Of a stretch of 64,000 bases of DNA, positions 5,861 through 30,155 are shown piece after piece; the stretch's first letter is position 1, and every line of letters starts with the position of its first letter. The notes below the pieces were generated by a model. That model was not told the DNA's origin. It ran no database searches and saw only the letters and a list, made by a program, of their open reading frames with translations. The position numbers and the translations under genes were made by a program. Origin of the DNA: Giesbergeria sp. (GTDB lineage Bacteria > Pseudomonadota > Gammaproteobacteria > Burkholderiales > Burkholderiaceae_C); assembly GCA_017985015.1 (NCBI GenBank), contig JAGNYI010000005.1, positions 21,041 through 85,040 on the forward strand. Direction: 5' to 3'.

Positions 5861-6769
5861 ATGACTATTCCCACCCGCGTCCACCTCATCGATGTCGGCC
5901 CGCGCGACGGCCTGCAGAACGAGAAATCCCCCGTGCCGGCCGAGGTCAAGATCGAGCTGGTACACCGCCTGCAAGCGGCTGGCCTGAAAGAGATCGAAGT
6001 CACCAGCTACGTCTCGCCCAAATGGGTGCCGCAAATGGCGGACAACCATGCGGTGATGCAGGGCATCCAACGACAAAGTGGCGTGCGCTACTCGGTGCTC
6101 ACCCCCAATCTCAAAGGGTTTGAAGCCGCGCTGCTCGACAAGCCCGATGAAATCGTCGTCTTCGGCTCGGCCAGCGAGGCCTTCAGCCAGAAGAACATCA
6201 ATTGCAGCATTGCCGAGAGCATCGAGCGCTTTGCGCCGGTGGTCGAGGCTGCGCTGGCGGCCGGCATTGCGGTGCGCGGTGCCATGAGCTGCACCGTGGG
6301 CTGCCCGTACGAGGGCGAGATTGCGCCCGGGCGCGTGGCCTACCTGGCGGGGCTGCTCAAAGGCATTGGCGTGCAGCGCGTGGATGTGGCCGACACCATT
6401 GGCGTGGGCACGCCGAGCAAGGTGCAGCGCGCCATCGAGGCGGCGCTCGCGCACTACGCGATCGACGAGGTTTCGGGCCACTTTCACGACACCTACGGCC
6501 AGGCGCTGGCCAACACGCTGGCGGCGCTGGAGCTGGGGGTGTGGAACTTCCAGTCTTCCGTGGCGGGTCTGGGCGGTTGCCCTTACGCCAAGGGCGCGAC
6601 GGGCAATGTGGCCACGGAAGATGTGGTGTACCTGCTGCATGGCATGGGGATTGAGACGGGGATCGATCTGGACAAATTGATCGACGCGGGCGTGTTCATC
6701 AGCGACTTTCTGGGGCGCAAGCCCAATTCGCGCGCGGCTACGGCCCTGCTCAACAAGCGGGCCGGGTGA
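5861..6769 (+). CDS. hydroxymethylglutaryl-CoA lyase
   Basis: VGPRDGLQNEK motif and the DTYGQALAN and GLGGCPYA motifs. ATG at 5861; GTG at 5858 is also possible. Confidence 0.9.
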   Translation: MTIPTRVHLIDVGPRDGLQNEKSPVPAEVKIELVHRLQAAGLKEIEVTSYVSPKWVPQMADNHAVMQGIQRQSGVRYSVLTPNLKGFEAALLDKPDEIVVFGSASEAFSQKNINCSIAESIERFAPVVEAALAAGIAVRGAMSCTVGCPYEGEIAPGRVAYLAGLLKGIGVQRVDVADTIGVGTPSKVQRAIEAALAHYAIDEVSGHFHDTYGQALANTLAALELGVWNFQSSVAGLGGCPYAKGATGNVATEDVVYLLHGMGIETGIDLDKLIDAGVFISDFLGRKPNSRAATALLNKRAG

Positions 6770-7281
6770 ATCGCATGTGTGGAGCTGAACTGAAGGCGCT
6801 TCCGGGTGGCGTACAGCGTGTGGCTGCGGCCTTGCAGCAGGCCGGCCACCTGCATGCGCCGCGCATGCTGGACGACGCCTGCCGCACCGCGCAGCAAGCG
6901 GCGGATGCGCTGGGCATTGCCGTGGGCCAGGTGGCCAAGAGCATCATTTTCCGGCGCATGTCGGACGACGCGGTGGTGCTGGTCATCACCTCGGGCGACC
7001 GGCGCGTGGATGCGGCCAAGGTCGAAGCGCTGGTGGGGGCGCTGGGCCGGGCCGACGCCGCCTTCGTCAAGGCGCGCACCGGTTTTTCCATTGGCGGCGT
7101 GGCGCCCATTGCCCACGCGGAGCCGGGCGTGACCTTGATTGACCGCGAACTGCTGCGTTTTGACACCCTGTGGGCGGCAGCGGGCCATCCACATGCCGTG
7201 TTTGCGCTGTCGCCGCACGATCTTGAGCGCCTGACGGGCGCGCCACTGGCCGATGTCACAGAGGCCCCGGGGCGCGCATGA
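6766..7281 (+). CDS. YbaK/EbsC-type aminoacyl-tRNA deacylase domain protein
   Basis: VAKSIIFR...VVLVITSGDRRVD...GFSIGGVAPIAH pattern. GTG start overlaps the upstream stop (GTGA). Confidence 0.65.
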   Translation: MNRMCGAELKALPGGVQRVAAALQQAGHLHAPRMLDDACRTAQQAADALGIAVGQVAKSIIFRRMSDDAVVLVITSGDRRVDAAKVEALVGALGRADAAFVKARTGFSIGGVAPIAHAEPGVTLIDRELLRFDTLWAAAGHPHAVFALSPHDLERLTGAPLADVTEAPGRA

Positions 7282-7553
7282 ATGCTATTAAAACAATAGC
7301 TGCTCGCGCACGCACATTAAGCGCTGCGGGCTATTTTGACCATGATTCCGATGAAGTGGTGCCGTCGCCCTGCGTATCGGTGTGCCGCATGTCGGCCGAC
7401 GGCAGCCTGTGCGAGGGGTGTTTTCGCAGCATCGCCGAAATTCGCGCTTGGTCCATGGCCGACGATGCCACCCGCCGCGCCATCTGGGTGCGGCTGCTGG
7501 AGCGGGCTGGCGCGCCCGTGCCAGCCAGCCTGCAAAGCACGGAGCGGCCATGA
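7278..7553 (+). CDS. DUF1289 family small Cys-rich protein; N-terminal ~22 codons encoded by an F1 element
   Basis: SPCVSVCRMSADGSLCEGCFRSIAEIRAW motif. ATG overlaps the upstream stop (ATGA). Confidence 0.6.
   Translation: MNAIKTIAARARTLSAAGYFDHDSDEVVPSPCVSVCRMSADGSLCEGCFRSIAEIRAWSMADDATRRAIWVRLLERAGAPVPASLQSTERP
7281..7345 (+). repeat. F1 element copy A (forward, inside DUF1289 ORF)
   Basis: AATGCTATTaaaaCAATAGCTGCTcGCGCacgcacaTTAAGCGCTGcGGGCtATTTTGACC. Confidence 0.75.
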
Positions 7554-8194
7554 AACGCATCACCTTCTACCTCGACTTCATCTCGCCCTACGCCTGGCTG
7601 GCCTTCGAGCGCCTGCCCGAGGCGCTCGAAGGCCTGAGCTACAGCGTCGAGTACCGGCCGGTGCTGCTGGGCGCGCTGCTGCAACAGCAAGGCAACCCGG
7701 GGCCGGCCGGCATTCCCCCGAAGCGCGACTGGACCTACCGGCATGTGAGCTGGCTCGGCCACTCGCTGGGCATCCCGTTGCAGATGCCGGCGCGCCATCC
7801 CTTCAACCCCTTGCCCTTGCTGCGGCGCGCGCTGGCCTGTTCAACCGACGGCAGCATCAACCGCTTTGTGGCGGGCACGGTGCTGCGCCACGTGTGGGTG
7901 GGGGGCCACGACGCACTCGACCCGGCTCGGCTCGATGCGCTGGCGCAAGTGCTGGCGCCACAGCTCAAACCTGGCATGGAGCCGCAAGACGCCGCCGTGA
8001 AAACCCTGCTGCGCAGCAATACCGATGCGGCGGCCGCACGCGGCGTGTTTGGTGTGCCGGCGTTTGGTGTGGACGACAAGCTCTTCTGGGGGCTTGATGC
8101 TCTGCCGATGCTGCGCGCCTGGTTGGAAGGCGATGCCTGGTTTGGCGCTGGCTGGGAGGCGTCGGCCCAGGTGGCAAGCGGTTTGCCCGGCTGA
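7550..8194 (+). CDS. 2-hydroxychromene-2-carboxylate isomerase family (DsbA-like thioredoxin fold)
   Basis: MKRITFYLDFISPYAWL N-terminus and FGVPAF...LFWGLD C-terminal motif. ATGA overlap with the upstream gene. Confidence 0.75.
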   Translation: MKRITFYLDFISPYAWLAFERLPEALEGLSYSVEYRPVLLGALLQQQGNPGPAGIPPKRDWTYRHVSWLGHSLGIPLQMPARHPFNPLPLLRRALACSTDGSINRFVAGTVLRHVWVGGHDALDPARLDALAQVLAPQLKPGMEPQDAAVKTLLRSNTDAAAARGVFGVPAFGVDDKLFWGLDALPMLRAWLEGDAWFGAGWEASAQVASGLPG

Positions 8195-8203
8195 TCCGGA
8201 CAT

Positions 8204-8233
8204 AAAAAAACCGGGCGCAAGGCCCGGCAAAAA
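8204..8233. terminator. bidirectional hairpin terminator between convergent genes
   Basis: aaaaaaaCCGGGCgcaaGGCCCGGcaaaaa. GC stem with A/T runs on both sides. Confidence 0.5.
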
Positions 8234-8291
8234 TGGCGCGGGTTTCTGGGCCGCGCCTGCGGGCGATGTGCCCGCGGAATGTCTTGCGCGC

Positions 8292-10028
8292 TCAGTGCCC
8301 GGAGGCTCCCGAGGCACCCAGGCCGGTTTCCGAACGCACCTGCTGCGCCGGGAAGGCGGCACGCTCGCGGGCGGCGTTGGCGCTCTTGTCGGTGATCGAG
8401 AACAACCAGATGCCGACGAAGCCGATGGTCATCGAGAACAACGCGGGCGAGGTGTAGGGGAACCAGGCCGAGCCAGCGGGGTGGCCCAGCGTGGCTTCCC
8501 AGACCGAAGGCGAGACGATGGTCAGGCCCACCGAAGAGATCAGCCCCAGGAAACCGCCCACCACCGCGCCGCGCGTGGTGCAGTTCTTCCATAGTACCGA
8601 CAGGAACAGCACCGGGAAGTTGGCCGAGGCCGCAACGGCAAAGGCCAGCGAGACCATGAAGGCGATGTTCTGCTTCTCGAAGGCGATGCCCAGTACCACG
8701 GCCACGACACCCAGGCACACGGTGGTGATGCGCGAAACACGCAGCTCGGAGGCGCTGTCGGCCTTGCCCTTCTTGACCAGCGTGGCATACAGGTCGTGCG
8801 ACACGGCCGATGCGCCCGAAAGCGTCAGGCCGGCCACCACAGCCAGGATGGTGGCAAATGCCACAGCCGAGATGAAGCCGTAGAACACGTTGCCGCCCAC
8901 CGTCTTGGCCACCAGCACCGCCGCCATGTTGGCCGTGCCGGCGCCGCCGTGGATGATGCCCTTGGCCACGTCTGCCATTTCAGGGTTGGTCAGCACCAGG
9001 GTGATGGCGCCAAAGCCGATGATGAAGATCAGCACGTAGAAGTAGCCAATCCAGGTAGTCGCCCACAGCACCGACTTGCGCGCCTGCTTGGCATCGGGCA
9101 CGGTGAAGAAGCGCATCAGGATGTGCGGCAGGCCGGCCGTGCCGAACATCAGTGCCATACCGAACGAGATGGCCGAGATCGGATCTTTGATGAAGCCGCC
9201 CGGGCCCATGATGGCCAAGCCTGCCTTCGCAGCCTCTTCAGGTGTTTTGCCGGTGTTGGCGGCGATGGCCGCACGCACTTGCACGCCCTTGGCAAACAAG
9301 GCTTCGGGGCTGAAGCCAAACTGCGCCAGCACCATGTAGGCCATGAAGGTCACGCCAGCCAGCAGCAAGACGGCCTTGATGATCTGCACCCAGGTGGTGG
9401 CTGTCATGCCGCCAAACAGCACATACACCATCATCAGCGCGCCGACGATGGCCACGGCCATCCAGTATTCCAGGCCAAACAGCAGCTTGATGAGCTGGCC
9501 CGCGCCAACCATCTGCGCGATCAGGTAGAAGGCCACGACGACCAGCGTGCCCGAAGCCGCGAAGGCGCGGATGGGGCCTTGCTGGAAGCGGTAGCCGGCC
9601 ACGTCGGCAAAGGTGAACTTGCCAAGGTTGCGCAGGCGCTCGGCCATCAGGAAGGTGATGATGGGCCAACCCACCAGGAAGCCGATGGAGTAGATCAAAC
9701 CGTCGTAGCCCGACGCCATCACGGCGGCGGAAATGCCCAGGAACGAGGCCGCCGACATGTAGTCGCCGGCAATCGCCAGGCCGTTCTGGAAGCCCGTGAT
9801 ACCGCCGCCAGCGGTATAGAAGTCGGACGCCGACTTGGTTTTGGCAGCGGCCCACTTGGTGATCCACAGGGTGAGGAGCACGAAACCGCCGAACATGCTG
9901 ATCGCCGTCCAGTTCGTGGCCTGCTTGGCCGCCTGGCCAAGATCGGCGCCAGCGGCTTGTGCAGCGCCTGCGGTACAGACGGCAAGCAGCGCCAGCAGCG
10001 CTGCGCGTGACATGGTGCGGGCGTTCAT
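8292..10028 (-). CDS. actP: cation/acetate symporter (SSF family)
   Basis: 578 aa with an N-terminal signal-like segment and SSF signature regions. Preceded by a DUF485 gene with ATGA overlap, the classic yjcH-actP pair. Confidence 0.9.
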
Positions 10029-10333
10029 TTCGTGGCGTCCTTCAGGATTTCCTTGGTCAACGTGTCGAACTCGCCGTTGGCGCGTCGCACATAGATGCCG
10101 GTGATGACAATGGTGAAGATGATCACCGCCAGTCCGATCGGAATGCCGAGTGAGGTGACCCCTTCGCCGATGGGCTGCGCGAGAAAGGATTTGTCAAACG
10201 CGATCAGCGCGATGTAGCCGTAGTAAACGACCAACATCAATAGGGTGAGCGTGACGCCCAGCCGGTTGCGTTTGTGCCTGAGGAGCGCGTACTTGGGATT
10301 GCGCTGGATCTTGTCTACGACGGGATCGGTCAT
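10025..10333 (-). CDS. yjcH: DUF485 inner membrane protein (YjcH-like)
   Basis: Two TM helices. Start [15 protein letters not shown] at 10333. Stop overlaps the actP start. Confidence 0.8.
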
Positions 10334-14936: not shown

Positions 14937-15066
14937 GCGCGCAGCCACGGGGCGGCGCAACGGCGCAGACCGAAGGCGCATGGGCCAACAGGGGCATGTT
15001 TCCCCGGCCGGTGCGGCCCAGCCGATATTTCTAGAATGTGGGGCCCTCATTTCCTGATTGCTCTAC

Positions 15067-21435
<6,369 letters not shown>

Positions 21436-22237: not shown

Positions 22238-22486
22238 GTGAGCAACACGCTGCGTTCCCAGCGCCTCGGCGCCTTGTTTGCCGCAGGCTGGCTGCTGCTG
22301 AACTTTCCGCTGCTGGGTTTGTGGGACAGTGACCTGACCGTGCTTGGGATTCCGCTGTTTCCGCTGGCGCTGTTTGCGATCTGGGGAGGCACGATTGCCA
22401 CCGTCGCCTGGTGGATGGAGTCGCGCCCGGCGCTTGAAACGCCGGCAACTTCCTTGCCCGAGCCAGCGCCGCAGGCGCGGGAATGA
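22238..22486 (+). CDS. small two-TM membrane protein translationally coupled to the SLC5-domain kinase
   Basis: GTG start with a GGAG RBS. Two hydrophobic helices. Stop overlaps the kinase ATG (ATGA). Confidence 0.5.
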   Translation: MSNTLRSQRLGALFAAGWLLLNFPLLGLWDSDLTVLGIPLFPLALFAIWGGTIATVAWWMESRPALETPATSLPEPAPQARE

Positions 22487-25245
22487 CCGCCATGCTGCCA
22501 GCGCCGCTCGTCATCGGCACCTCGCTGGCCTATCTGCTGCTGCTCGTCGGCGTCGCTTATTGGGCCGACCGCCGGGCTGCGGCGCGCCGCTCAGTCATCG
22601 CCAGGCCCTGGGTGTACGCGCTGTCGATGGCGGTGTACTGCACCGCCTGGACCTACTTTGGCAGCGTCGAGCGCGCGGCCACAGGTGGCATGTGGTTCCT
22701 GCCCATCTACCTGGGGCCCACGCTGGCCATGGTGCTGGGCTGGACGGTGCTGCGCAAGATGATTCGCATTGCCAAGACGCACCGCATCACCTCGATTGCC
22801 GACTTCATCGCCAGCCGCTATGGCAAAAGCCAGTTGCTCGCCACGCTGGTGACGCTGGTGGCCGTGGTGGGCATCGTTCCCTACATTGCACTGCAGCTCA
22901 AGGCCGTGTCCTCGGGCTATGCACTGCTCACGTCCGGCAGCGCGGTGGCTCCAGCGCACCTGCACTGGAGCCAGGACAGCGCCTTTTACGTCGCCATCGC
23001 CCTGGCCGGTTTCGCCATCGTGTTTGGCGCGCGCCACCTCGATACCACCGAGCGCCACGAAGGCATGGTGGCGGCCATAGCCTTTGAGTCGCTGGTCAAG
23101 CTGGCCGCTTTTTTGTGCGTCGGCGTGTTTGTCGTCTACGGCCTGTTTGGTGGTCTGGGCGACATTTTTTCCCAGGCGCGGGCGCGGCCAGAGCTCGCGG
23201 ACCTGCTGCATGCCGAGCAGGGCGGGGCCTATTCCTGGGCGCGCTGGATGGGGCTGATGGTGCTGGCCTTGTGCGCCGCGCTGGTGCTGCCACGGCAGTT
23301 TCAGGTCATGGTGGTGGAGAACGTGCACGAAGACCATGTGCGCCGCGCGAGCTGGATGTTTCCGCTCTACCTCTTGCTGATCAACCTCTTCGTGCTGCCC
23401 ATTGCCCTGGGCGGCCTGCTGTATTTCAGTGGTGGCGAGCACAACCCCGAGCACTTCGTCCTCTCCCTGCCCATGGCCGCGGGGCAGAACGCGCTGGCCC
23501 TGTTTGTCTTCATTGGCGGGTTGTCCGCCGCCACCGGCATGGTGATCGTTGAGACGGTGGCGGTCTCCACCATGGTCAGCAACGAGCTGGCGCTGCCGCT
23601 GCTGCTGCGGCTTCGCCTGCTGGATGCCGCCCACCAGCCGAGCGATTTCACGCGCCCGCTGCTCATGATCCGACGCGCCGCCATCGTGGGCGTGCTGCTG
23701 CTGGGCTACGTGTATTTCCAACTGGCGGGGGATGCTTATGCGCTGGCAAGCATTGGCCTCATCAGCTTTGCCGCCGTGGCCCAGTTTGCCCCGGTACTGC
23801 TGGGCGGCATGTACTGGCGCGGCGGCACGCGCGCGGGCGCCCTGGCCGGACTGATCATGGGTTTTGGCGTGTGGGTCTACACACTCATGCTGCCGTCGAT
23901 TGCCAAGTCGGGCTGGCTGGACGCGGGTTTCCTCACGGCCGGGCCGTGGGGCATCGCCTGGCTGCGGCCCGAATCGCTGTGGGGCCTGCAGGGCCTCGAC
24001 AGCCTGACGCATTCGCTGTTCTGGAGCCTGCTGACCAACTGCGCGGCCTATGTGGTGGTGTCGCTCTGGCGCGCGCCGTCCGGCCGCGAAGCCAGCCAGG
24101 CGCTGCTGTTTGTCGACGTGTTTCGGCGCGGCACGGCGCAAACACCGGTGTTTTGGCGCGGGCGCGCCGACGCCGCCGAACTCAAGCGTCTTTGCGAGCG
24201 TTTTCTCGGCGTGGAAAAGACGGGTGAGCTCTGGCGTGGCTATGCCAAGCAGGCCGGCTTGCCCGCGGACCAGGCCCTGGTCCCGGACGCACGCCTGGTG
24301 CAGTTTGTCGAAGCGCAGCTGGCAGGGGCCGTGGGCAGCGCCTCGGCACGGGTGCTGGTGGCTTCGGTCTCTGACGAGGAGACGCTCTCGCAAGGCGACG
24401 TGCTGGTCATGTTGGAAGAGGCCTCGCAGCTGCGCAGCTACTCCCGTGCGCTCGAAACCAAGTCGCGCTCGCTGGAGCAGGCCACCAGCGAGCTGCGCAG
24501 CGCGAACGAGCAGCTCAAAAGCCTGGACCGTTTGAAGGACGATTTCATGTCGTCGGTGACCCATGAACTGCGCACACCGCTGACCTCGATACGCGCGCTG
24601 GCAGAAATTTTGCAGGGCGACGCAGAGGTGCCGCCGCAGCAGCGCCAGCGCTTTGTTGACATCATCGTGCAGGAGACCGAGCGCCTTACCCGGCTGGTCA
24701 ATCAGGTGCTCGACATGGCCAAGATCGAGTCCGGGCATATCGACTGGCGGTTGGCCGACATCGACGTGCGCGCACTGCTTGAAAAAGCCATGGCCACCAC
24801 GGCGGCGCTGCTGAGTGACCGGGGCGCCGAGATGGAGCTCGATGTGCCCCAGACCCTCCCGTTGCTGCACGCTGACCCGGACCGTTTGCTCCAGGTGCTG
24901 CTCAACCTCATCTCCAACGCCGCCAAGTTCGTGCCACCGCAGGGTGGGCACGTGCAACTGCGCGCACGCGCAGATGGGCAGGGCCTGACCGTGTGCGTGC
25001 AGGACAATGGTCCCGGTGTGCCTGCGGGCCACGAGCACCTCATCTTTGACCGCTTTCATCAAGCAGGTGGGCCCACGCCGGGCGGTCAGGGCACCGGTCT
25101 GGGCCTGCCGATCAGCCACCACATCGTGGCGCACTTTGGCGGCCGCCTGTGGCTGGAGCCGCCTGCCCCTGGCGCACCACCCGGTGCCTGTTTTTGCTTC
25201 TGGCTGCCCTGGCAGCCCGCCTTTTCTGGAGACACTGCCCCATGA
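22483..25245 (+). CDS. sensor histidine kinase with N-terminal sodium:solute symporter (SLC5/SSF) domain (CbrA/CrbS-like architecture, no receiver)
   Basis: About 500 aa of SSF-type TM domain. STAC-like linker (VQFVEAQLAGAVGSASARVLV). HisKA SVTHELRTPL. HATPase N, G1 and G2 boxes (NLISNAAKF, DNGPGV, GTGLGL). Confidence 0.85.
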   Translation: MTAMLPAPLVIGTSLAYLLLLVGVAYWADRRAAARRSVIARPWVYALSMAVYCTAWTYFGSVERAATGGMWFLPIYLGPTLAMVLGWTVLRKMIRIAKTHRITSIADFIASRYGKSQLLATLVTLVAVVGIVPYIALQLKAVSSGYALLTSGSAVAPAHLHWSQDSAFYVAIALAGFAIVFGARHLDTTERHEGMVAAIAFESLVKLAAFLCVGVFVVYGLFGGLGDIFSQARARPELADLLHAEQGGAYSWARWMGLMVLALCAALVLPRQFQVMVVENVHEDHVRRASWMFPLYLLLINLFVLPIALGGLLYFSGGEHNPEHFVLSLPMAAGQNALALFVFIGGLSAATGMVIVETVAVSTMVSNELALPLLLRLRLLDAAHQPSDFTRPLLMIRRAAIVGVLLLGYVYFQLAGDAYALASIGLISFAAVAQFAPVLLGGMYWRGGTRAGALAGLIMGFGVWVYTLMLPSIAKSGWLDAGFLTAGPWGIAWLRPESLWGLQGLDSLTHSLFWSLLTNCAAYVVVSLWRAPSGREASQALLFVDVFRRGTAQTPVFWRGRADAAELKRLCERFLGVEKTGELWRGYAKQAGLPADQALVPDARLVQFVEAQLAGAVGSASARVLVASVSDEETLSQGDVLVMLEEASQLRSYSRALETKSRSLEQATSELRSANEQLKSLDRLKDDFMSSVTHELRTPLTSIRALAEILQGDAEVPPQQRQRFVDIIVQETERLTRLVNQVLDMAKIESGHIDWRLADIDVRALLEKAMATTAALLSDRGAEMELDVPQTLPLLHADPDRLLQVLLNLISNAAKFVPPQGGHVQLRARADGQGLTVCVQDNGPGVPAGHEHLIFDRFHQAGGPTPGGQGTGLGLPISHHIVAHFGGRLWLEPPAPGAPPGACFCFWLPWQPAFSGDTAP

Positions 25246-25622
25246 CCCAAAAGAAGATTTTGATTGCCGACGACGAACCCAACATCGTGGTGTCGCTTGA
25301 ATACCTGCTGCAGCGCGAGGGCTACGCGGTAAGCATTGCGCGCGACGGTCAGCAGGCGTTGGACGCCATCGCCCGCGAGGCGCCGGATCTGGTGCTGCTC
25401 GATGTGATGATGCCCATCAAATCGGGCTTCGAGGTGTGTGCCAGCGTGCGGGGCGACGCCGCGCTGGCGCACACGCGCATCCTCATGCTCAGCGCCAAGG
25501 GACGCGATACCGATCTGGCCAAAGGCATGGCTCTGGGCGCGGACGACTACATGACCAAGCCCTTTGCCACGCGTGAACTGGTGGCGCGCGTGGCCGAGAT
25601 GCTGGCCAAGGACCGCCCATGA
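25242..25622 (+). CDS. single-domain response regulator (receiver only)
   Basis: KILIADDEPNIV...DLVLLDVMMP...ILMLSAKG...DYMTKPF. ATGA overlaps on both sides. Confidence 0.85.
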   Translation: MTQKKILIADDEPNIVVSLEYLLQREGYAVSIARDGQQALDAIAREAPDLVLLDVMMPIKSGFEVCASVRGDAALAHTRILMLSAKGRDTDLAKGMALGADDYMTKPFATRELVARVAEMLAKDRP

Positions 25623-27790
25623 AACGCATCGACCCACGCCTGCTGGCTGCCATTGCGCTGGCTGGCGTGGTGATGGCGCTGTGGTTGGTGCTGATGTCGG
25701 CCATCGTCTGGTCCACGCTCAGCCCACCTGAGCGTGAGGCTGTGGGCGAGGTGCTGGCGGGGCGGATCGCGCTGGTCTTTGTCGGCTGGGTGCTGGGCCT
25801 GATCGCCGTGGCAGCGGCGCTGCGCGTGCTGCACCAGCGCTACGTCGGCGCGCCTCACCGTTTGCTGGAGGAAGTCCGTGTCGTGTTGGCGGCGCGCCGG
25901 CCACAGCTGCTCAAGCCGCGCGGCACGCGGGAGATGCAGGCTCTGGTGGTTGCGGTGAACGAGCTGGCGGGGCAGCGGGACCGCCTGCGTGCCGAGATGG
26001 ACGCGCAGGTCACGCAGGCCAGCGAGCGTGTGCAGCAGGAGAAGGACCGCCTCGCAGCGCTGATGGCCGAGCTCCATCAGAGCGTGGTGGTGTGCAACCA
26101 CGCCGGGCGCATCCTGCTTTACAACCAGCGCGCACGCCAGACCGTTCGGGCGCTATCGCAGGGGCCCCAGCTGGCCGATGGCGCCGAGCTGATCGGCATT
26201 GGCCGCTCGATTTATGCGGCGCTGGAGCGCCAGGTGCTGGCGCACGCCTTCGAGCGCATTCAGCGGGCCGTGGCCAAAGGCGACGCCCGGCCGACGGCGC
26301 AGTTCGTCACCACGGTGGCGGGCGGGCAGTTGCTGCGCGTGCAGGTGGCGCCGGTGCGCGCCAGCCAGGGGGTGTCGGGCCGAAGCACCGAGGTCACCGG
26401 CTTTGTGCTCATGCTCGACAACGTGACCGAGAGCGTGGCCGAGGAATCCGAGCGCGACCAGTTGCTGCATGGCCTCACCGAAGGCAGCCGGGCGTCGCTG
26501 GCCAACATCCAGGCGGCCGTGGACATGCTGGGCTACCCCGACACCCCGCCCGCCATGCGCGAGCGCTTTCTGGCCGTGGTGCGCGAAGAGGTGGCCTCCA
26601 TGGGCACGCGGGTCACGGATCTTGCCCAGCGCAGCGCCCAGCGCCTCAAAACGCGCTGGCCGCTGGAAGATATGCTGGGCGCGGACCTGGCAGCTGCCGC
26701 TCAGCGCCAGCTCGGGGCACGCTGCGGCTGCCCGGTCACGCTGGACGCCATCGATCCGGCGCTCTGGCTCAAGGTGGACAGCTACACGCTGCTGCAGGCG
26801 CTCACCTACCTTGGCACGCGCCTGGTGGACGAGTTCGAGGTGCGCTTTTTGCAGCTGCGCCTGGCGCGCGCGGGCGCGCACGCCCAGCTCGATCTCGTCT
26901 GGGGTGGCCAGGCCATGAGCAACGAAACCGTGATGAGCTGGGAGATGGACGCCATGCGCTTTGGCACCGAGCGCACGCCGCTCTCGGTGCGCGACGTGGT
27001 TGAGCGCCATGGCGGCGAGATGTGGTTCGAGCGCGAGCGGGTGCGCCACCAGGCGCTGTTTCGCTTTCTGCTGCCACTGGCCAGCAGCCAGCCCGAGGAC
27101 GCCAGTCAGGCGGCGTCCGAGTCGCCCAGCCGCCCCGAGTTCTACGACTTTGACCTGTTCCAGAGCAGCGAAGAGGGCAGCGCTCTGGAAGACCGTCCCC
27201 TGGCCGAGCTGACCTACACCGTGTTCGACACCGAAACCACGGGCCTGAATCCGTCGGGAGGCGACGCCATCATCCAGATCGGTGCGGCGCGCATCGTCAA
27301 CGGCAAGCTCCTGCGCCAGGAAAGCTTTGACCAATTGGTGGACCCAGGCCGCAGCATCCCCGCCGAATCGATTCCGATCCACGGCATCAGCCAGGACATG
27401 GTGGACGGTCAGCCGCGCATCGCCCAGGTGCTGCCGGTCTTCCACGCCTTTGCCGAAGACACTGTGCTGGTGGCACACAACGCGGCCTTCGACATGAAGT
27501 TTCTTCAGTTGCAGGAAGAGGCCACCGGCATTGTGTTTCGCCAGCCCGTGCTCGATACCCTGCTGCTTTCGGCCGTAGTGCACCCCAATCAGGAGTCGCA
27601 CCGACTCGAAGCCATCGCCGAACGCTTCAACGTCACGGTGCTGGGCCGGCACACGGCGCTGGGCGACGCGCTGGTGACGGCAGAGATCTGGCTGCGCTTG
27701 ATTCCGCTGCTGGCCGACCAAGGCATCCACACCCTGCGCCAGGCGCGCGAAGCGGCGCAAAAGACGTATTACGCACGGCTGAAGTACTGA
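25619..27790 (+). CDS. membrane-anchored HAMP/PAS/kinase-like sensor region fused to a C-terminal DEDDh (DnaQ-like) 3'-5' exonuclease
   Basis: Two N-terminal TM helices. Coiled HAMP-like segment. HATPase-like tail (VVERHGGEMWFERE). Exo motifs FDTETTG, VAHNAAFDMKFL and HTALGDALVTAE. Confidence 0.8.
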   Translation: MKRIDPRLLAAIALAGVVMALWLVLMSAIVWSTLSPPEREAVGEVLAGRIALVFVGWVLGLIAVAAALRVLHQRYVGAPHRLLEEVRVVLAARRPQLLKPRGTREMQALVVAVNELAGQRDRLRAEMDAQVTQASERVQQEKDRLAALMAELHQSVVVCNHAGRILLYNQRARQTVRALSQGPQLADGAELIGIGRSIYAALERQVLAHAFERIQRAVAKGDARPTAQFVTTVAGGQLLRVQVAPVRASQGVSGRSTEVTGFVLMLDNVTESVAEESERDQLLHGLTEGSRASLANIQAAVDMLGYPDTPPAMRERFLAVVREEVASMGTRVTDLAQRSAQRLKTRWPLEDMLGADLAAAAQRQLGARCGCPVTLDAIDPALWLKVDSYTLLQALTYLGTRLVDEFEVRFLQLRLARAGAHAQLDLVWGGQAMSNETVMSWEMDAMRFGTERTPLSVRDVVERHGGEMWFERERVRHQALFRFLLPLASSQPEDASQAASESPSRPEFYDFDLFQSSEEGSALEDRPLAELTYTVFDTETTGLNPSGGDAIIQIGAARIVNGKLLRQESFDQLVDPGRSIPAESIPIHGISQDMVDGQPRIAQVLPVFHAFAEDTVLVAHNAAFDMKFLQLQEEATGIVFRQPVLDTLLLSAVVHPNQESHRLEAIAERFNVTVLGRHTALGDALVTAEIWLRLIPLLADQGIHTLRQAREAAQKTYYARLKY

Positions 27791-27863
27791 AATGCTATTT
27801 TTTTAATAGCTAACTAAGCTTATATATCAAACGCTGGAAGCCAAAAATGCTCGGAAAATCGAC
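27791..27863 (+). repeat. F1 element copy D (forward), fills the whole gap between two convergent stop codons
   Basis: AATGCTATTtttttAATAGCTaacTAAGCTTAtatatcaAACGCTGGAAGCCAAAAATGCTCGGAAAATCG. Confidence 0.8.
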
Positions 27864-29750
27864 CTAGAATCGCCCCGCCTGGTAGCGCTGGCCGAGCACG
27901 CCCTGGACCGTGTGCACCACCGAGAACGCCTCCTTGAGGTGGCTGCGCTCGAAGTTGGAGAGTTCCTCCAACGCCAGAAAGTTGTCGGGCGCCTGGCCCT
28001 GCGCCATTTGCCGGGCCTGGTGGCGGATGCGCAGCTTGGAGATGAATTCGAGCGCCTCCCGCAGGTCGCGCGCGCTCTGCGGGCTCACTTCGCCCGCGGC
28101 GCCGGCCACGGCCACCATCTCCAGCCGGTCGTGCGTGTTGACGGCGGCCACCGCGCCGGCCAGGGCAAACAGGCGAGCGAGATCAACGATAGGGACAATG
28201 CCCGTGTGCTTGAGGTCGATGGTGCCCGCATGGTCGCCACCGCGGATGCGCGCGATGGTCCCAAACAAGCCCAGCGGCGGGCGGTGCTTGAGCGCGTTGC
28301 CCACCATGTGCGCCAGAAACAGGCTGTTGCCGCGCGTGTTCTCCAGCACCTCGTGGCGCAGTGTGTCCAGCAACTCGGCGCGGCCGTGGATGGCGCGCAG
28401 GTCGAAGAACACGCAGGTCAGCATCAGCGCCATGGGTTCGGGCGTATCCACCCACTGGCGGAAATATTCGGCCCAGCGCGCGCGCGGCTGGCGCCATTTT
28501 TCCGTCATGGCCATCATCTCGCCTGGGCAGTGGATGTAGCCGCAGGCAGCCAGGCCGTCGCATACGTACCTGGAGAACTCACGAAACCAGATGCCGTGGA
28601 GGGATTCGTCGTAGTCGTCGGCCAGCACCAGACAGTTGTCCTGGTCCGAGAGAGCCGTCTGCTCGCTGCGTGCTTGCGAGCCTGCCGCCACCCACACGTA
28701 ATCTACCGGCGGCGGACCCAGGCGCTCTTCGGCCAGCTGAATCAGCCGCACCGTCACCGCGTCGGTGATGGCGGTGACGATATGCCCCGTGCTGTAGGCG
28801 CTGGCATCTGCGTCGGCCAGGTGGCGCTGCAGCGCCTTGAGACGCGTGGTGGTTTGCGCCAGGCCCGCCGCCGTGGTCTGCTTGTGGATTTCACCTGCCA
28901 GCACCACCGCCGAGGTGCTTTGCTGTTCGGCCAGGTCCGTCGCGGTGACCATGCCCACCAGTTGCGCTCCGTCCATCACCGGCACATGGTGGATATTGGC
29001 GCGCGCCATCAGCAGCATGGCCTCAAAGGTGGGGCTGTGGGCCTGCAGCGTATGGGGCGCCAGCGTCGCGATGCCGCGCACCGGCAGCGCGGGGTCGAGT
29101 TGCTCGGCCAGCACCCGGTTGCGCAGGTCGCGATCGGTCACCAGGCCCATGAGCTTGCCGTTCTCCACCAGCAGCACGGACGAGACGCGCTGCTCGCGCA
29201 TGTGGCTGGCTACCTCACGAATGGGCGTGTCGGGAGAAAGGCTGACCGGAGGCCGCCGCAGCAGTGTGCGAACGGGAGTGGCAAGGCGGTTGAGGCGCAG
29301 GCCGATTTCCCCGGGCGCTTCGCCTTCGCCATGCGCCATATCCGTAGCGCTGGGCAGCGAGGGGAAGTGGTATTCCAGCGCGTCGTGCGCCAGGCACAGC
29401 CGCGCCAGTTCCGTGGGCGCCAGCCAGGCCACCGCCCCGTCGGTAGCCGCCGTGGCCTGCCAGGTGGTGAGATGGCGCGCCGGCGTGGCGCCAAAGCCAA
29501 ACAGCTCGCCGCGCTGCAGGCGCACGGCCTGCCCCAGGTCAGGGTCCAGCAGATCCACCGCGCCAGCCACCACCATGCCCAGGCGGCTGAACAAACGGCC
29601 CTGGGGCAAGAGCAACAGGCCTTCGCTGGTGCCCTGATGCTCCCATTGCGCGGAAAAATCCGCCAGTACGGCGGCGTCCAGCGCCCCCCAGATGCGGTGG
29701 CTGGCCAGCAGGGCCTGAAAATCTTCGGAAGAAGGCGCGGCGGAATTCAT
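27864..29750 (-). CDS. cNMP-binding / tandem CBS / DUF294 putative nucleotidyltransferase
   Basis: Start MNSAAPSSEDF at 29750. CBS pairs (VSSVLLVENGKLMGLVTDRDL and HHVPVMDGAQLVGMVTATDL). NTase motif GSQARSEQTALSDQDN. Confidence 0.8.
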   Translation of the reverse strand: MNSAAPSSEDFQALLASHRIWGALDAAVLADFSAQWEHQGTSEGLLLLPQGRLFSRLGMVVAGAVDLLDPDLGQAVRLQRGELFGFGATPARHLTTWQATAATDGAVAWLAPTELARLCLAHDALEYHFPSLPSATDMAHGEGEAPGEIGLRLNRLATPVRTLLRRPPVSLSPDTPIREVASHMREQRVSSVLLVENGKLMGLVTDRDLRNRVLAEQLDPALPVRGIATLAPHTLQAHSPTFEAMLLMARANIHHVPVMDGAQLVGMVTATDLAEQQSTSAVVLAGEIHKQTTAAGLAQTTTRLKALQRHLADADASAYSTGHIVTAITDAVTVRLIQLAEERLGPPPVDYVWVAAGSQARSEQTALSDQDNCLVLADDYDESLHGIWFREFSRYVCDGLAACGYIHCPGEMMAMTEKWRQPRARWAEYFRQWVDTPEPMALMLTCVFFDLRAIHGRAELLDTLRHEVLENTRGNSLFLAHMVGNALKHRPPLGLFGTIARIRGGDHAGTIDLKHTGIVPIVDLARLFALAGAVAAVNTHDRLEMVAVAGAAGEVSPQSARDLREALEFISKLRIRHQARQMAQGQAPDNFLALEELSNFERSHLKEAFSVVHTVQGVLGQRYQAGRF

Positions 29751-29816: not shown

Positions 29817-30155
29817 ATGAAATCGTCTGAAACCCGGATCGTCTGGCTGCAGCCTGGGGCACCGCCCAAGCCGCCGCTCGGTCAGACCTGCAATGGCTGT
29901 GGCCTGTGCTGCCTGAGCGCGCCTTGCCCGCTGGGCATGCTGGTTTCGCGCAGGCGCACGGGGGCTTGCGCCGCGCTGCGCTGGAGCGCAGTCGAGCGGC
30001 GCTATCGGTGCGGGCTCCTCAGTGAGCCGGCCGATGTCACGGGCTGGCGCTGGCCCTGGCTGCTGCGGGCAGTGCGCGCGGTGGCGCAGCGCCAGATTGC
30101 TGCGGGCAGCGGCTGCGACGCGGCGGTGGAGGCAATCCAACCAAACACTCCTTGA
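29817..30155 (+). CDS. small Cys-rich hypothetical protein (CxxCxxCC, YkgJ/UPF0153-like)
   Basis: CNGCGLCCLSAPCPLG motif. Stop codon lies in F1 copy E. Confidence 0.4.
   Translation: MKSSETRIVWLQPGAPPKPPLGQTCNGCGLCCLSAPCPLGMLVSRRRTGACAALRWSAVERRYRCGLLSEPADVTGWRWPWLLRAVRAVAQRQIAAGSGCDAAVEAIQPNTP

Follow-up and report, generated by a model that had tools for sequence, protein, structure and literature searches.

The outputs of two-component systems are nearly always transcription factors, cyclic-di-GMP enzymes or the chemotaxis machinery. In a 64-kb stretch of a Giesbergeria sp. contig (JAGNYI010000005.1), hereafter called the window, four overlapping genes encode a small membrane protein, a CbrA-like histidine kinase with an SLC5-type transporter domain, a receiver-only response regulator and a 723-aa membrane protein in which a kinase-like scaffold, predicted to be inactive, is fused to a DEDDh 3'-5' exonuclease. 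Together with a convergent gene for a CBS-DUF294 nucleotidyltransferase, we propose with moderate confidence that they form a conserved five-protein signalling module, which ends in a phosphodiester-acting enzyme and not in a transcription factor, and in which the phosphorylated receiver gates the exonuclease.

The closest described relative of the kinase is CbrA of Pseudomonas putida, whose gene is translationally coupled to cbrX (PMC6591292). CbrX is a 58-aa two-helix peptide, the gene of which overlaps cbrA, and it has been visualized by cryo-electron microscopy in complex with the SLC5-STAC part of CbrA (PDB 10ED; PMC13022988). Regarding the enzymes, MxtR/ErdR (CrbS/CrbR) of P. putida binds the promoter of pp_0354, which codes for a cNMP-CBS-nucleotidyltransferase and forms an operon with pp_0353, coding for an RNase_T-type exonuclease; these genes are the most strongly MxtR/ErdR-dependent set in this bacterium (PMC9927547; bioRxiv 10.64898/2026.09.07.749794). 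Similarly, CrbS/R controls the homologous pflu5625 in P. fluorescens (PMC5715377), and Price et al. reported a COG2905/RNase T-domain gene of Shewanella amazonensis and Pseudomonas stutzeri to be cofit with DUF4212-SSS transporters, their speculation being that symporter expression depends on it (bioRxiv 10.1101/072470). The DUF294 and exonuclease pair is a recurrent unexplained observation, and its phenotypes are shared by SSS transporters for acetate, lactate and alanine. As for kinase-like proteins devoid of the phospho-accepting residue, DivL of Caulobacter crescentus is a pseudo-histidine-kinase with a Tyr at the His position, which binds the phosphorylated single-domain regulator DivK and acts on a second kinase, CckA.

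A literature search on CrbS, DUF294, pseudo-histidine kinases with an exonuclease, and Pden_5110-5115 retrieved no description of the fused family or of its receiver operon. The preliminary description of this locus, made from the DNA letters, knew of no characterized example; this holds for the fused pseudo-kinase-exonuclease with its receiver, for which the literature searched has none, and not for the DUF294 and RNase_T pair, already known as a direct target of the SLC5 kinase system MxtR/ErdR in Pseudomonas (PMC9927547; bioRxiv 10.64898/2026.09.07.749794), a COG2905/RNase T-domain gene being moreover cofit with SSS transporters (bioRxiv 10.1101/072470). SLC5 transceptor kinases, receiver-binding pseudo-kinases and DUF294/exonuclease pairs are each of a known kind; what is new here is the output architecture, a conserved two-component branch ending in an exonuclease with a putatively dead kinase as receiver platform being undescribed in the literature searched.

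A receiver-linked kinase scaffold fused to an exonuclease

Gene models were based on the list of open reading frames (ORFs), on a check of the ATGA junctions and on public gene calls for contigs encoding an identical 723-aa protein. Successive genes share ATGA start/stop overlaps at 22483-22486, 25242-25245 and 25619-25622, and on three public contigs the 920-, 126- and 723-aa genes are called alike and followed by a convergent 628-aa gene. The operon as first described, four genes of these lengths linked by three overlaps and with the domain make-up then assigned to them, is consequently borne out by the ORF list, the sequence, Pfam and independent public gene calls. Three 4-nt overlaps are unremarkable alone, because they are ordinary for an operon in a genome of such GC content (66% in the window); the feature that exceeds chance is the retention of gene order and overlaps in distant taxa.

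The 723-aa protein was modelled with AlphaFold2 (AF2) on an alignment of 59 diverse relatives, giving a mean predicted local distance difference test score (pLDDT) of 83.7. With Foldseek, the N-terminal part of the model retrieves whole sensor kinases (WalK at 1e-16; YF1, VicK and ThkA at about 1e-14 to 1e-11), and it is accordingly predicted to have the PAS-DHp-CA fold of a histidine kinase. The protein starts with a transmembrane (TM) hairpin whose loop measures only 2-3 residues and therefore leaves no room for a periplasmic sensor domain. The following stalk has the family consensus G..E...LA.AIN.LA and is HAMP-like by its modelled helix-loop-helix, the Pfam HAMP family being silent. Next comes a PAS domain in which 16 residues are near-invariant (Cys159, Asn169 and G195-R196-S197 among them), a conservation unusually high for a sensor module, which hints at a specific ligand or cofactor.

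In the DHp-like hairpin, the phospho-His of VicK and the one of the operon's own kinase both align with Glu288 (codon 26480-26482; TEGSR versus THELR for the latter kinase), Arg291 being retained. The absence of a phospho-accepting H-box His, which had been suspected from the sequence, is thus confirmed by both alignments. Among the 59 relatives, this position is occupied by Glu in 35, Gln in seven and Asp in five. The gene neighbourhood was studied in 80 fetched related loci from Alpha-, Beta- and Gammaproteobacteria, with denominators varying by the feature scored; in these 80 loci, the position holds Glu (66), Gln (6), Asp (4), His (1) or other residues (three). The CA-like domain has an Arg at the N-box Asn position (Arg401; Arg in 38 of the 59 relatives), its G2 region reads PLT/S-V-R without glycines, and no HATPase_c match was obtained with Pfam anywhere in the 723-aa protein. 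With the phospho-His replaced by Glu and the ATP-binding boxes degenerate, the protein should be unable to autophosphorylate, and its N-terminal 490 aa are predicted to be a catalytically dead pseudo-kinase. The only His at the H-box position occurs in an uncultured betaproteobacterium (L054, gene 8001-10229, LTHGSR); this protein was considered as a genuine kinase and rejected, its CA-like domain also being without ATP-binding boxes. The motif follows the receiver: Glu, Gln or His at position 288 together with Arg291 is present in every one of the 58 loci where a receiver adjoins, and decay is limited to some of the loci that have no adjacent receiver.

The scaffold is joined to the exonuclease by a linker (aa 494-518) which is predicted to be disordered (pLDDT <50) and within which a linear motif, SRPE[FY]YDFDLF, is near-invariant. 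It is found once per fused gene in 81 of 82 loci and is missing from short exonuclease paralogues, and the receiver or the DUF294 protein could dock on it. In the exonuclease domain itself, D537, E539, D625, H678 and D683 (the D-x-E of ExoI, the Asp of ExoII and the H-x4-D of ExoIII) are invariant in 59 of 59 relatives. The complete DEDDh site proposed earlier therefore stands without substitution at any of its five catalytic residues, and the domain is, as judged from them, catalytically intact.

The best sequence match of this domain is the PolC-type exonuclease of T. maritima (2P1J, E=4.7e-33), and Foldseek retrieves the PolC exonuclease (34% identity, rmsd 1.4 Å), the DinG exonuclease and E. 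coli epsilon (TM-score 0.84). The domain thus shares with PolC and DnaQ epsilon (PDB 2P1J, 9QPC, 2IDO) the same fold and complete ExoI, ExoII and ExoIII motifs, but it stands outside any polymerase or holoenzyme and comes with a 520-residue membrane sensor scaffold and the SRPE[FY]YDFDLF motif. It scores 115 against the epsilon family TIGR01406 (cut-off 222.7) and 156 against the PolC family NF001688 (cut-off 873). Both scores fall far short of the curated thresholds, which makes the frequent label 'DNA polymerase III subunit epsilon' in databases an over-annotation; the present analysis corrects this widespread mis-annotation of the family.

Directly upstream, the 126-aa protein consists of a receiver as its sole domain (Pfam Response_reg, 8e-28 over residues 6-117), in agreement with the earlier view that it has no output domain. 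All 58 homologues from the related loci share D10, D11, D54, T/S84, Y103 and K106, and the protein is predicted from these residues to be a single-domain (CheY/DivK-like) regulator built for phosphorylation. The coordinates of all features are collected in Table 1.

Table 1. Genes, domains and motifs of the locus and of the transporter genes upstream (positions within the window)
Feature	Position	Strand	Length and basis
Small membrane protein gene	22238..22486	+	82 aa, GTG start, ORF list; stop overlaps kinase start by ATGA
CbrA-like transceptor histidine kinase gene	22483..25245	+	920 aa, ORF list
SLC5-type transporter domain, aa 1-515	22483..24027	+	phmmer to PDB 10ED chain A
STAC-like region, aa ~512-626 (weak assignment)	24016..24360	+	18-orthologue profile
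Kinase catalytic core, HisKA aa 685-751 and HATPase_c aa 798-910	24535..25212	+	Pfam 8.3e-20, 2.7e-24
Receiver-only response regulator gene	25242..25622	+	126 aa from ATG at 25242; ATGA overlap at both ends
Predicted pseudo-histidine-kinase/DEDDh 3'-5' exonuclease fusion gene, membrane-anchored	25619..27790	+	723 aa, ORF list
TM hairpin, aa 6-60	25634..25798	+	AF2 helices 6-33 and 36-91
Stalk, HAMP-like helix-loop-helix and coiled coil, aa 61-150	25799..26068	+	AF2 helices to 91 and 104-150
PAS domain, aa 151-268	26069..26422	+	AF2 PAS fold; Pfam PAS_4 weak (6.8e-4)
DHp-like two-helix hairpin, aa 270-346	26426..26656	+	Alignments to VicK and the operon's own kinase
CA-like alpha/beta domain, aa 350-487	26666..27079	+	Fold by AF2/Foldseek; column composition
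Linear motif S-R-P-E-[FY]-Y-D-F-D-L-F, aa 504-514	27128..27160	+	Near-invariant in family, inside disordered linker
DEDDh exonuclease domain, aa 530-720	27206..27778	+	Pfam RNase_T 3.7e-36 at residues 535-690
CBS-CBS-DUF294-DUF294_C nucleotidyltransferase gene, convergent	27864..29750	-	628 aa; Pfam 4e-43, 1e-43; start by homologue alignment and public gene calls
ActP-type SSF transporter gene	8292..10028	-	Pfam SSF 2e-113; 12 kb upstream of operon
DUF485 partner of ActP, gene	10028..10333	-	Pfam 1e-33

The 920-aa protein is composed of an SLC5-type domain with 13 TM helices, a STAC-like linker, a coiled coil, HisKA and HATPase_c. Its residues 11-508 match the SLC5-STAC chain of P. putida CbrA (PDB 10ED chain A, phmmer E=1e-74). 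The generic Pfam SSF family finds nothing on the N-terminus even at E<=10, though it matches the ActP transporter of the window (Table 1). Since Pfam SSF is silent, the SLC5 assignment, correct as first given, comes solely from the comparison with CbrA. When the CbrA residues named as forming the pocket and Na2 site (PMC13022988) are aligned with the kinase, seven of nine are identical or conservatively replaced (Y51 to Y52, S53 to T54, W55 to W56, F71 to F72, Y75 to Y76, K196 to K206 and F406 to F429), the differing positions being A56 to T57 and F248 to A262. Because the Na2-site Lys and most aromatic residues are retained, the ligand is probably a small carboxylate or an amino-acid-like solute. 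The STAC-like region gave no match in a single-sequence search of the PDB, and an 18-sequence profile places it colinear with CbrA 476-588 by a weak match (E~0.1). No PAS domain was found between this region and the DHp, and no receiver domain within the kinase. All boxes are intact in the translation, i.e., THELRTPL (H), NLISNAAKF (N), DNGPG (G1), FDRF (F) and GTGLGL (G2), so that the protein is predicted to be a HisKA-type sensor histidine kinase with all catalytic motifs. In one further assembly with an identical 723-aa protein (L084; GCA_017994225.1, JAGOLF010000007.1, 1-2627), the kinase is called as pieces of 363 and 595 aa and not as 920 aa, pointing to a frameshift or disruption of the SLC5 part or to a misassembly there.

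The 82-aa protein has two hydrophobic helices; about 40 loci encode it in conserved form, sharing the motif QRL.ALF..G..LFNFPLL.LWD. Neither a Pfam match nor any similarity to PDB entries or to CbrX (10ED) was found, be it with the single sequence or with a 19-sequence profile. As no sequence similarity is detectable, it is an analogue of CbrX in position and topology and not a demonstrated homologue; the earlier analogy with the small ORF coupled upstream of cbrA is apt in this sense (PMC6591292; PMC13022988). Overall, the likeness to CbrX-CbrA extends to a homologous SLC5 domain, the Na2-site Lys and most of the aromatic residues of its pocket, a STAC-like segment tentatively assigned by its weak colinear match and a coupled gene for a small two-helix peptide upstream. 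By contrast, the kinase described here lacks the PAS domain before the DHp, its small partner does not resemble CbrX in sequence, and its neighbour is a receiver-only protein instead of the NtrC-type CbrB.

Conservation of the operon and its nucleotidyltransferase neighbour

The nearest named relatives of the 723-aa protein belong to Giesbergeria, Simplicispira and Acidovorax, all Comamonadaceae. When its residues 1-520, without the exonuclease, were used as query, 1410 cluster representatives were retrieved at E<=1e-3 and 406 at E<=1e-30, and the best 150 matches are mostly 700-740 aa long. Full-length relatives are present in Comamonadaceae, in Rhodocyclales including Accumulibacter, Propionivibrio and Methyloversatilis, in Competibacter, Colwellia and Wenzhouxiangella, and on Paracoccus and Cupriavidus replicons.

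A receiver gene lies directly upstream of the exonuclease gene in 51 of 75 loci, or in 58 of 80 with a looser distance criterion, and an SLC5 kinase gene lies upstream of the receiver in 45 of 68. In 45/68 loci, with identities as low as 47%, the whole order of small protein, kinase, receiver and exonuclease is retained; it is encountered in Comamonadaceae, Rhodocyclales, Colwellia, Wenzhouxiangella and Paracoccus. Chance adjacency was considered and rejected, since the gene order is retained across three proteobacterial classes. At the junction of the receiver and exonuclease genes, 35 of 56 loci have a 4-nt overlap and 46 of 56 a gap of at most 4 nt, as compared to 17 of 47 with a 4-nt overlap between kinase and receiver. 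Judged by these junctions, the receiver and the exonuclease protein form the tightest pair, and in six loci this pair occurs without the kinase. These counts answer the doubt, raised when the locus was first described, that the exonuclease gene might not be co-conserved with the receiver.

The first description took the nuclease for the only candidate output, and in this respect it overlooked the adjacent CBS-DUF294 nucleotidyltransferase gene, which is likely the fifth member of the module. Such a gene is present in 46 of 62 loci (convergent downstream, as in the window, in 21, co-directional downstream in 15 and upstream in 14). In Paracoccus denitrificans PD1222, it is even co-operonic: on plasmid 1 (PDEN_RS25395-25415), five co-directional overlapping genes encode, in this order, the DUF294 protein, an 81-aa protein, the kinase, the receiver and the exonuclease. 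In Paracoccus yeei, DUF485, ActP, DUF294, receiver and exonuclease follow one another without a kinase. The GS...DQDN catalytic motif of the DUF294 protein is invariant among homologues; Pfam detects nothing in its N-terminal 150 aa, and nowhere in the protein a cNMP-binding domain such as the one reported for PP_0354. A profile of its catalytic region gave no more than a marginal match to minimal nucleotidyltransferases in the PDB (E~0.09), with no clue to the substrate. In two Comamonas loci, a short stand-alone exonuclease gene (L033, 8001-8309; L034, 8001-8555) and a second DUF294 paralogue (about 6550-7900) stand directly upstream of the fused gene; as this extra pair adjoins the fused exonuclease and its convergent DUF294, two paralogous enzyme pairs abut there.

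Transporters complete this picture, a separate SSS transporter with a DUF4212 or DUF485 small subunit being encoded in 38 of 62 loci. Like the genes studied by Price et al., which adjoin SSS carboxylate or alanine transporters and share their mutant phenotype, many loci here are flanked by DUF4212-SSS or DUF485-ActP, whereas no kinase, receiver or pseudo-kinase fusion was described in that work. Likewise, in the CrbS/CrbR regulon an SLC5 kinase is tied to a DUF294 nucleotidyltransferase and a DEDDh exonuclease, the Pseudomonas pair being linked to actP/yjcH and to short-chain carboxylates. There, however, kinase and enzymes are connected by transcriptional control via the LuxR-type CrbR/ErdR, and PP_0353 has no reported sensor scaffold (the exonucleases are compared here by kind of domain only), whereas the exonuclease of the window is fused to a putative membrane pseudo-kinase and co-translated with a receiver-only protein and a kinase. 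The connection between kinase and enzyme pair, transcriptional in Pseudomonas, appears to be post-translational in the present system.

Proposed signalling route and competing explanations

In the route that we favour, the CbrX/CbrA-like pair would, by homology, sense a small carboxylate or an amino-acid-like solute as it is bound or transported, and the kinase would phosphorylate Asp54 of the stand-alone receiver, as adjacency and intact residues suggest. In the 723-aa protein, the DHp-like helices would then be the docking site of the phospho-receiver, and this docking would alter the scaffold in such a way that the exonuclease is switched on or off or that its access to substrate is changed. 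Finally, gene linkage and published genetics point to a target with a 3'-OH or nucleotidyl group which the exonuclease and the CBS-DUF294 protein would share, the read-out being the uptake or assimilation of short-chain carboxylates via SSS transporters. Docking of the receiver would match the logic of phospho-DivK and DivL, because the 723-aa protein keeps a whole sensor-kinase scaffold and yet should be unable to autophosphorylate. In both cases, the phospho-His is substituted and a stand-alone receiver is the likely ligand, so that the signal would run in reverse, from regulator to kinase-like protein; they differ in the residue at the His position (Glu here) and in the fused exonuclease output, and the binding of the receiver is here suggested indirectly, by the conserved 4-nt overlap of the genes and their co-occurrence.

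A more specific version of this route, which we put forward only tentatively, is a phosphorylation-gated writer and eraser of nucleotidylation: the DUF294 protein would add nucleotides or NMP, the membrane-tethered DEDDh domain would remove them, and the phospho-receiver would set the balance according to solute flux through the SLC5 domain. The target could be a hydroxyl on an RNA 3' end or on a protein residue, maybe in the SSS transporter machinery at the membrane. If true, two-component systems would have a further, novel type of output, and a function could be assigned to the DUF294/exonuclease genes in the CrbS/R regulon. The fused operon offers a defined kinase, receiver and effector as experimental handles, and it is present in the genetically tractable Paracoccus denitrificans PD1222 and in acetate-storing wastewater bacteria (Accumulibacter, Competibacter, Propionivibrio).

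Several points weigh against a receiver-gated exonuclease. In 17 of 68 loci, neither a kinase nor a receiver adjoins the exonuclease gene; helix 2 of the DHp is poorly conserved; the nearest solved relatives of the exonuclease domain are DNA proofreading domains; and in Pseudomonas, deletions of the pp_0354/pp_0353 pair affect growth mildly and only on pyruvate and propionate (PMC9927547; bioRxiv 10.64898/2026.09.07.749794). Moreover, a DNA-binding partner of the kinase may lie elsewhere in the genome, outside the 64-kb window, and the 723-aa protein, having its own PAS domain and TM hairpin, could sense independently. A competing explanation is a branched pathway, in which an unlinked regulator of the CrbR/LuxR or CbrB/NtrC type is the real output, the receiver is only a phosphate sink or connector, and the 723-aa protein senses alone via its PAS domain or hairpin, sharing the operon because it serves the same physiology. 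All characterized SLC5 kinases do signal to DNA-binding regulators (PMC5715377; PMC9100948; PMC13022988), and both the strong conservation of the PAS domain and the 17 loci mentioned above fit such a scheme. We nevertheless consider it unlikely, as the receiver is more tightly joined to the exonuclease gene than to the kinase gene and stays with the former where the kinase is missing, and as the 64-kb window contains no other receiver, histidine kinase or DUF294 paralogue.

Signals might also enter through the membrane. Intramembrane-sensing kinases use transporters as co-sensors, and the hairpin of the 723-aa protein, virtually without a loop in the AF2 model, might contact the SLC5 domain of the kinase or an SSS transporter, with the receiver fine-tuning the response. 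CbrX provides a precedent for a two-helix hairpin that binds an SLC5 domain (PMC13022988), the separate SSS transporters of many loci would supply partners, and in some kinase-less loci (L035, L037, L069, L070 and L082) the exonuclease gene directly follows DUF4212-SSS or DUF485-ActP. The hairpin is, however, the least conserved folded part of the protein (mean majority fraction 0.36, no near-invariant residue), which makes this explanation, though compatible with a receiver-gated exonuclease, rather improbable. Far less credible is a role in DNA metabolism, with the 723-aa protein as a regulated proofreading or repair exonuclease, in line with its database label. Its kinship with the PolC, epsilon and DinG exonucleases would be in favour of such a role, and so would the final five residues of the YDFDLF-ending motif, which we take to resemble the beta-clamp-binding consensus QL[SD]LF and through which the protein would maybe be recruited to the clamp, and a UvrA-like gene nearby in five loci. 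In opposition to this, the epsilon and PolC cut-offs are missed by far, the protein is membrane-anchored, and the genes conserved around it encode a carbon-sensing kinase, SSS transporters and a nucleotidyltransferase and not replication or repair functions, the UvrA synteny being limited to Comamonadaceae. A receiver-gated exonuclease remains the reading that we prefer.

Further observations in the window concern the surroundings of the operon. Between the exonuclease and DUF294 genes, whose ends converge, lies an AT-rich spacer of 73 bp (27791-27863) with the palindrome GCTATTTTTTTAATAGC; this spacer may be a bidirectional terminator, and a simple terminator scan made no call there. Around the locus, a promoter scan returned no promoter-like site and terminator-like matches that are mostly intragenic, and Rfam, at a permissive threshold over 20.5-31 kb of the window, gave no credible match. 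Between the DUF294 and cytochrome oxidase subunit I genes, an ORF on the plus strand (29817-30155) encodes a Cys-rich protein of 112 aa (C-x2-C-x2-CC...C), which has no Pfam match and is called as a gene in public assemblies. Finally, the ORF at 15058-21435 encodes a 2125-aa UvrA-like protein with duplicated ABC domains, inside which an 84-bp unit is repeated 3.0 times in frame with 98% identity (15508-15758); the repeats encode three 28-aa Pro/Gly-rich copies near the N-terminus, and further Gly/Pro-rich inserts occur later in the same ORF.

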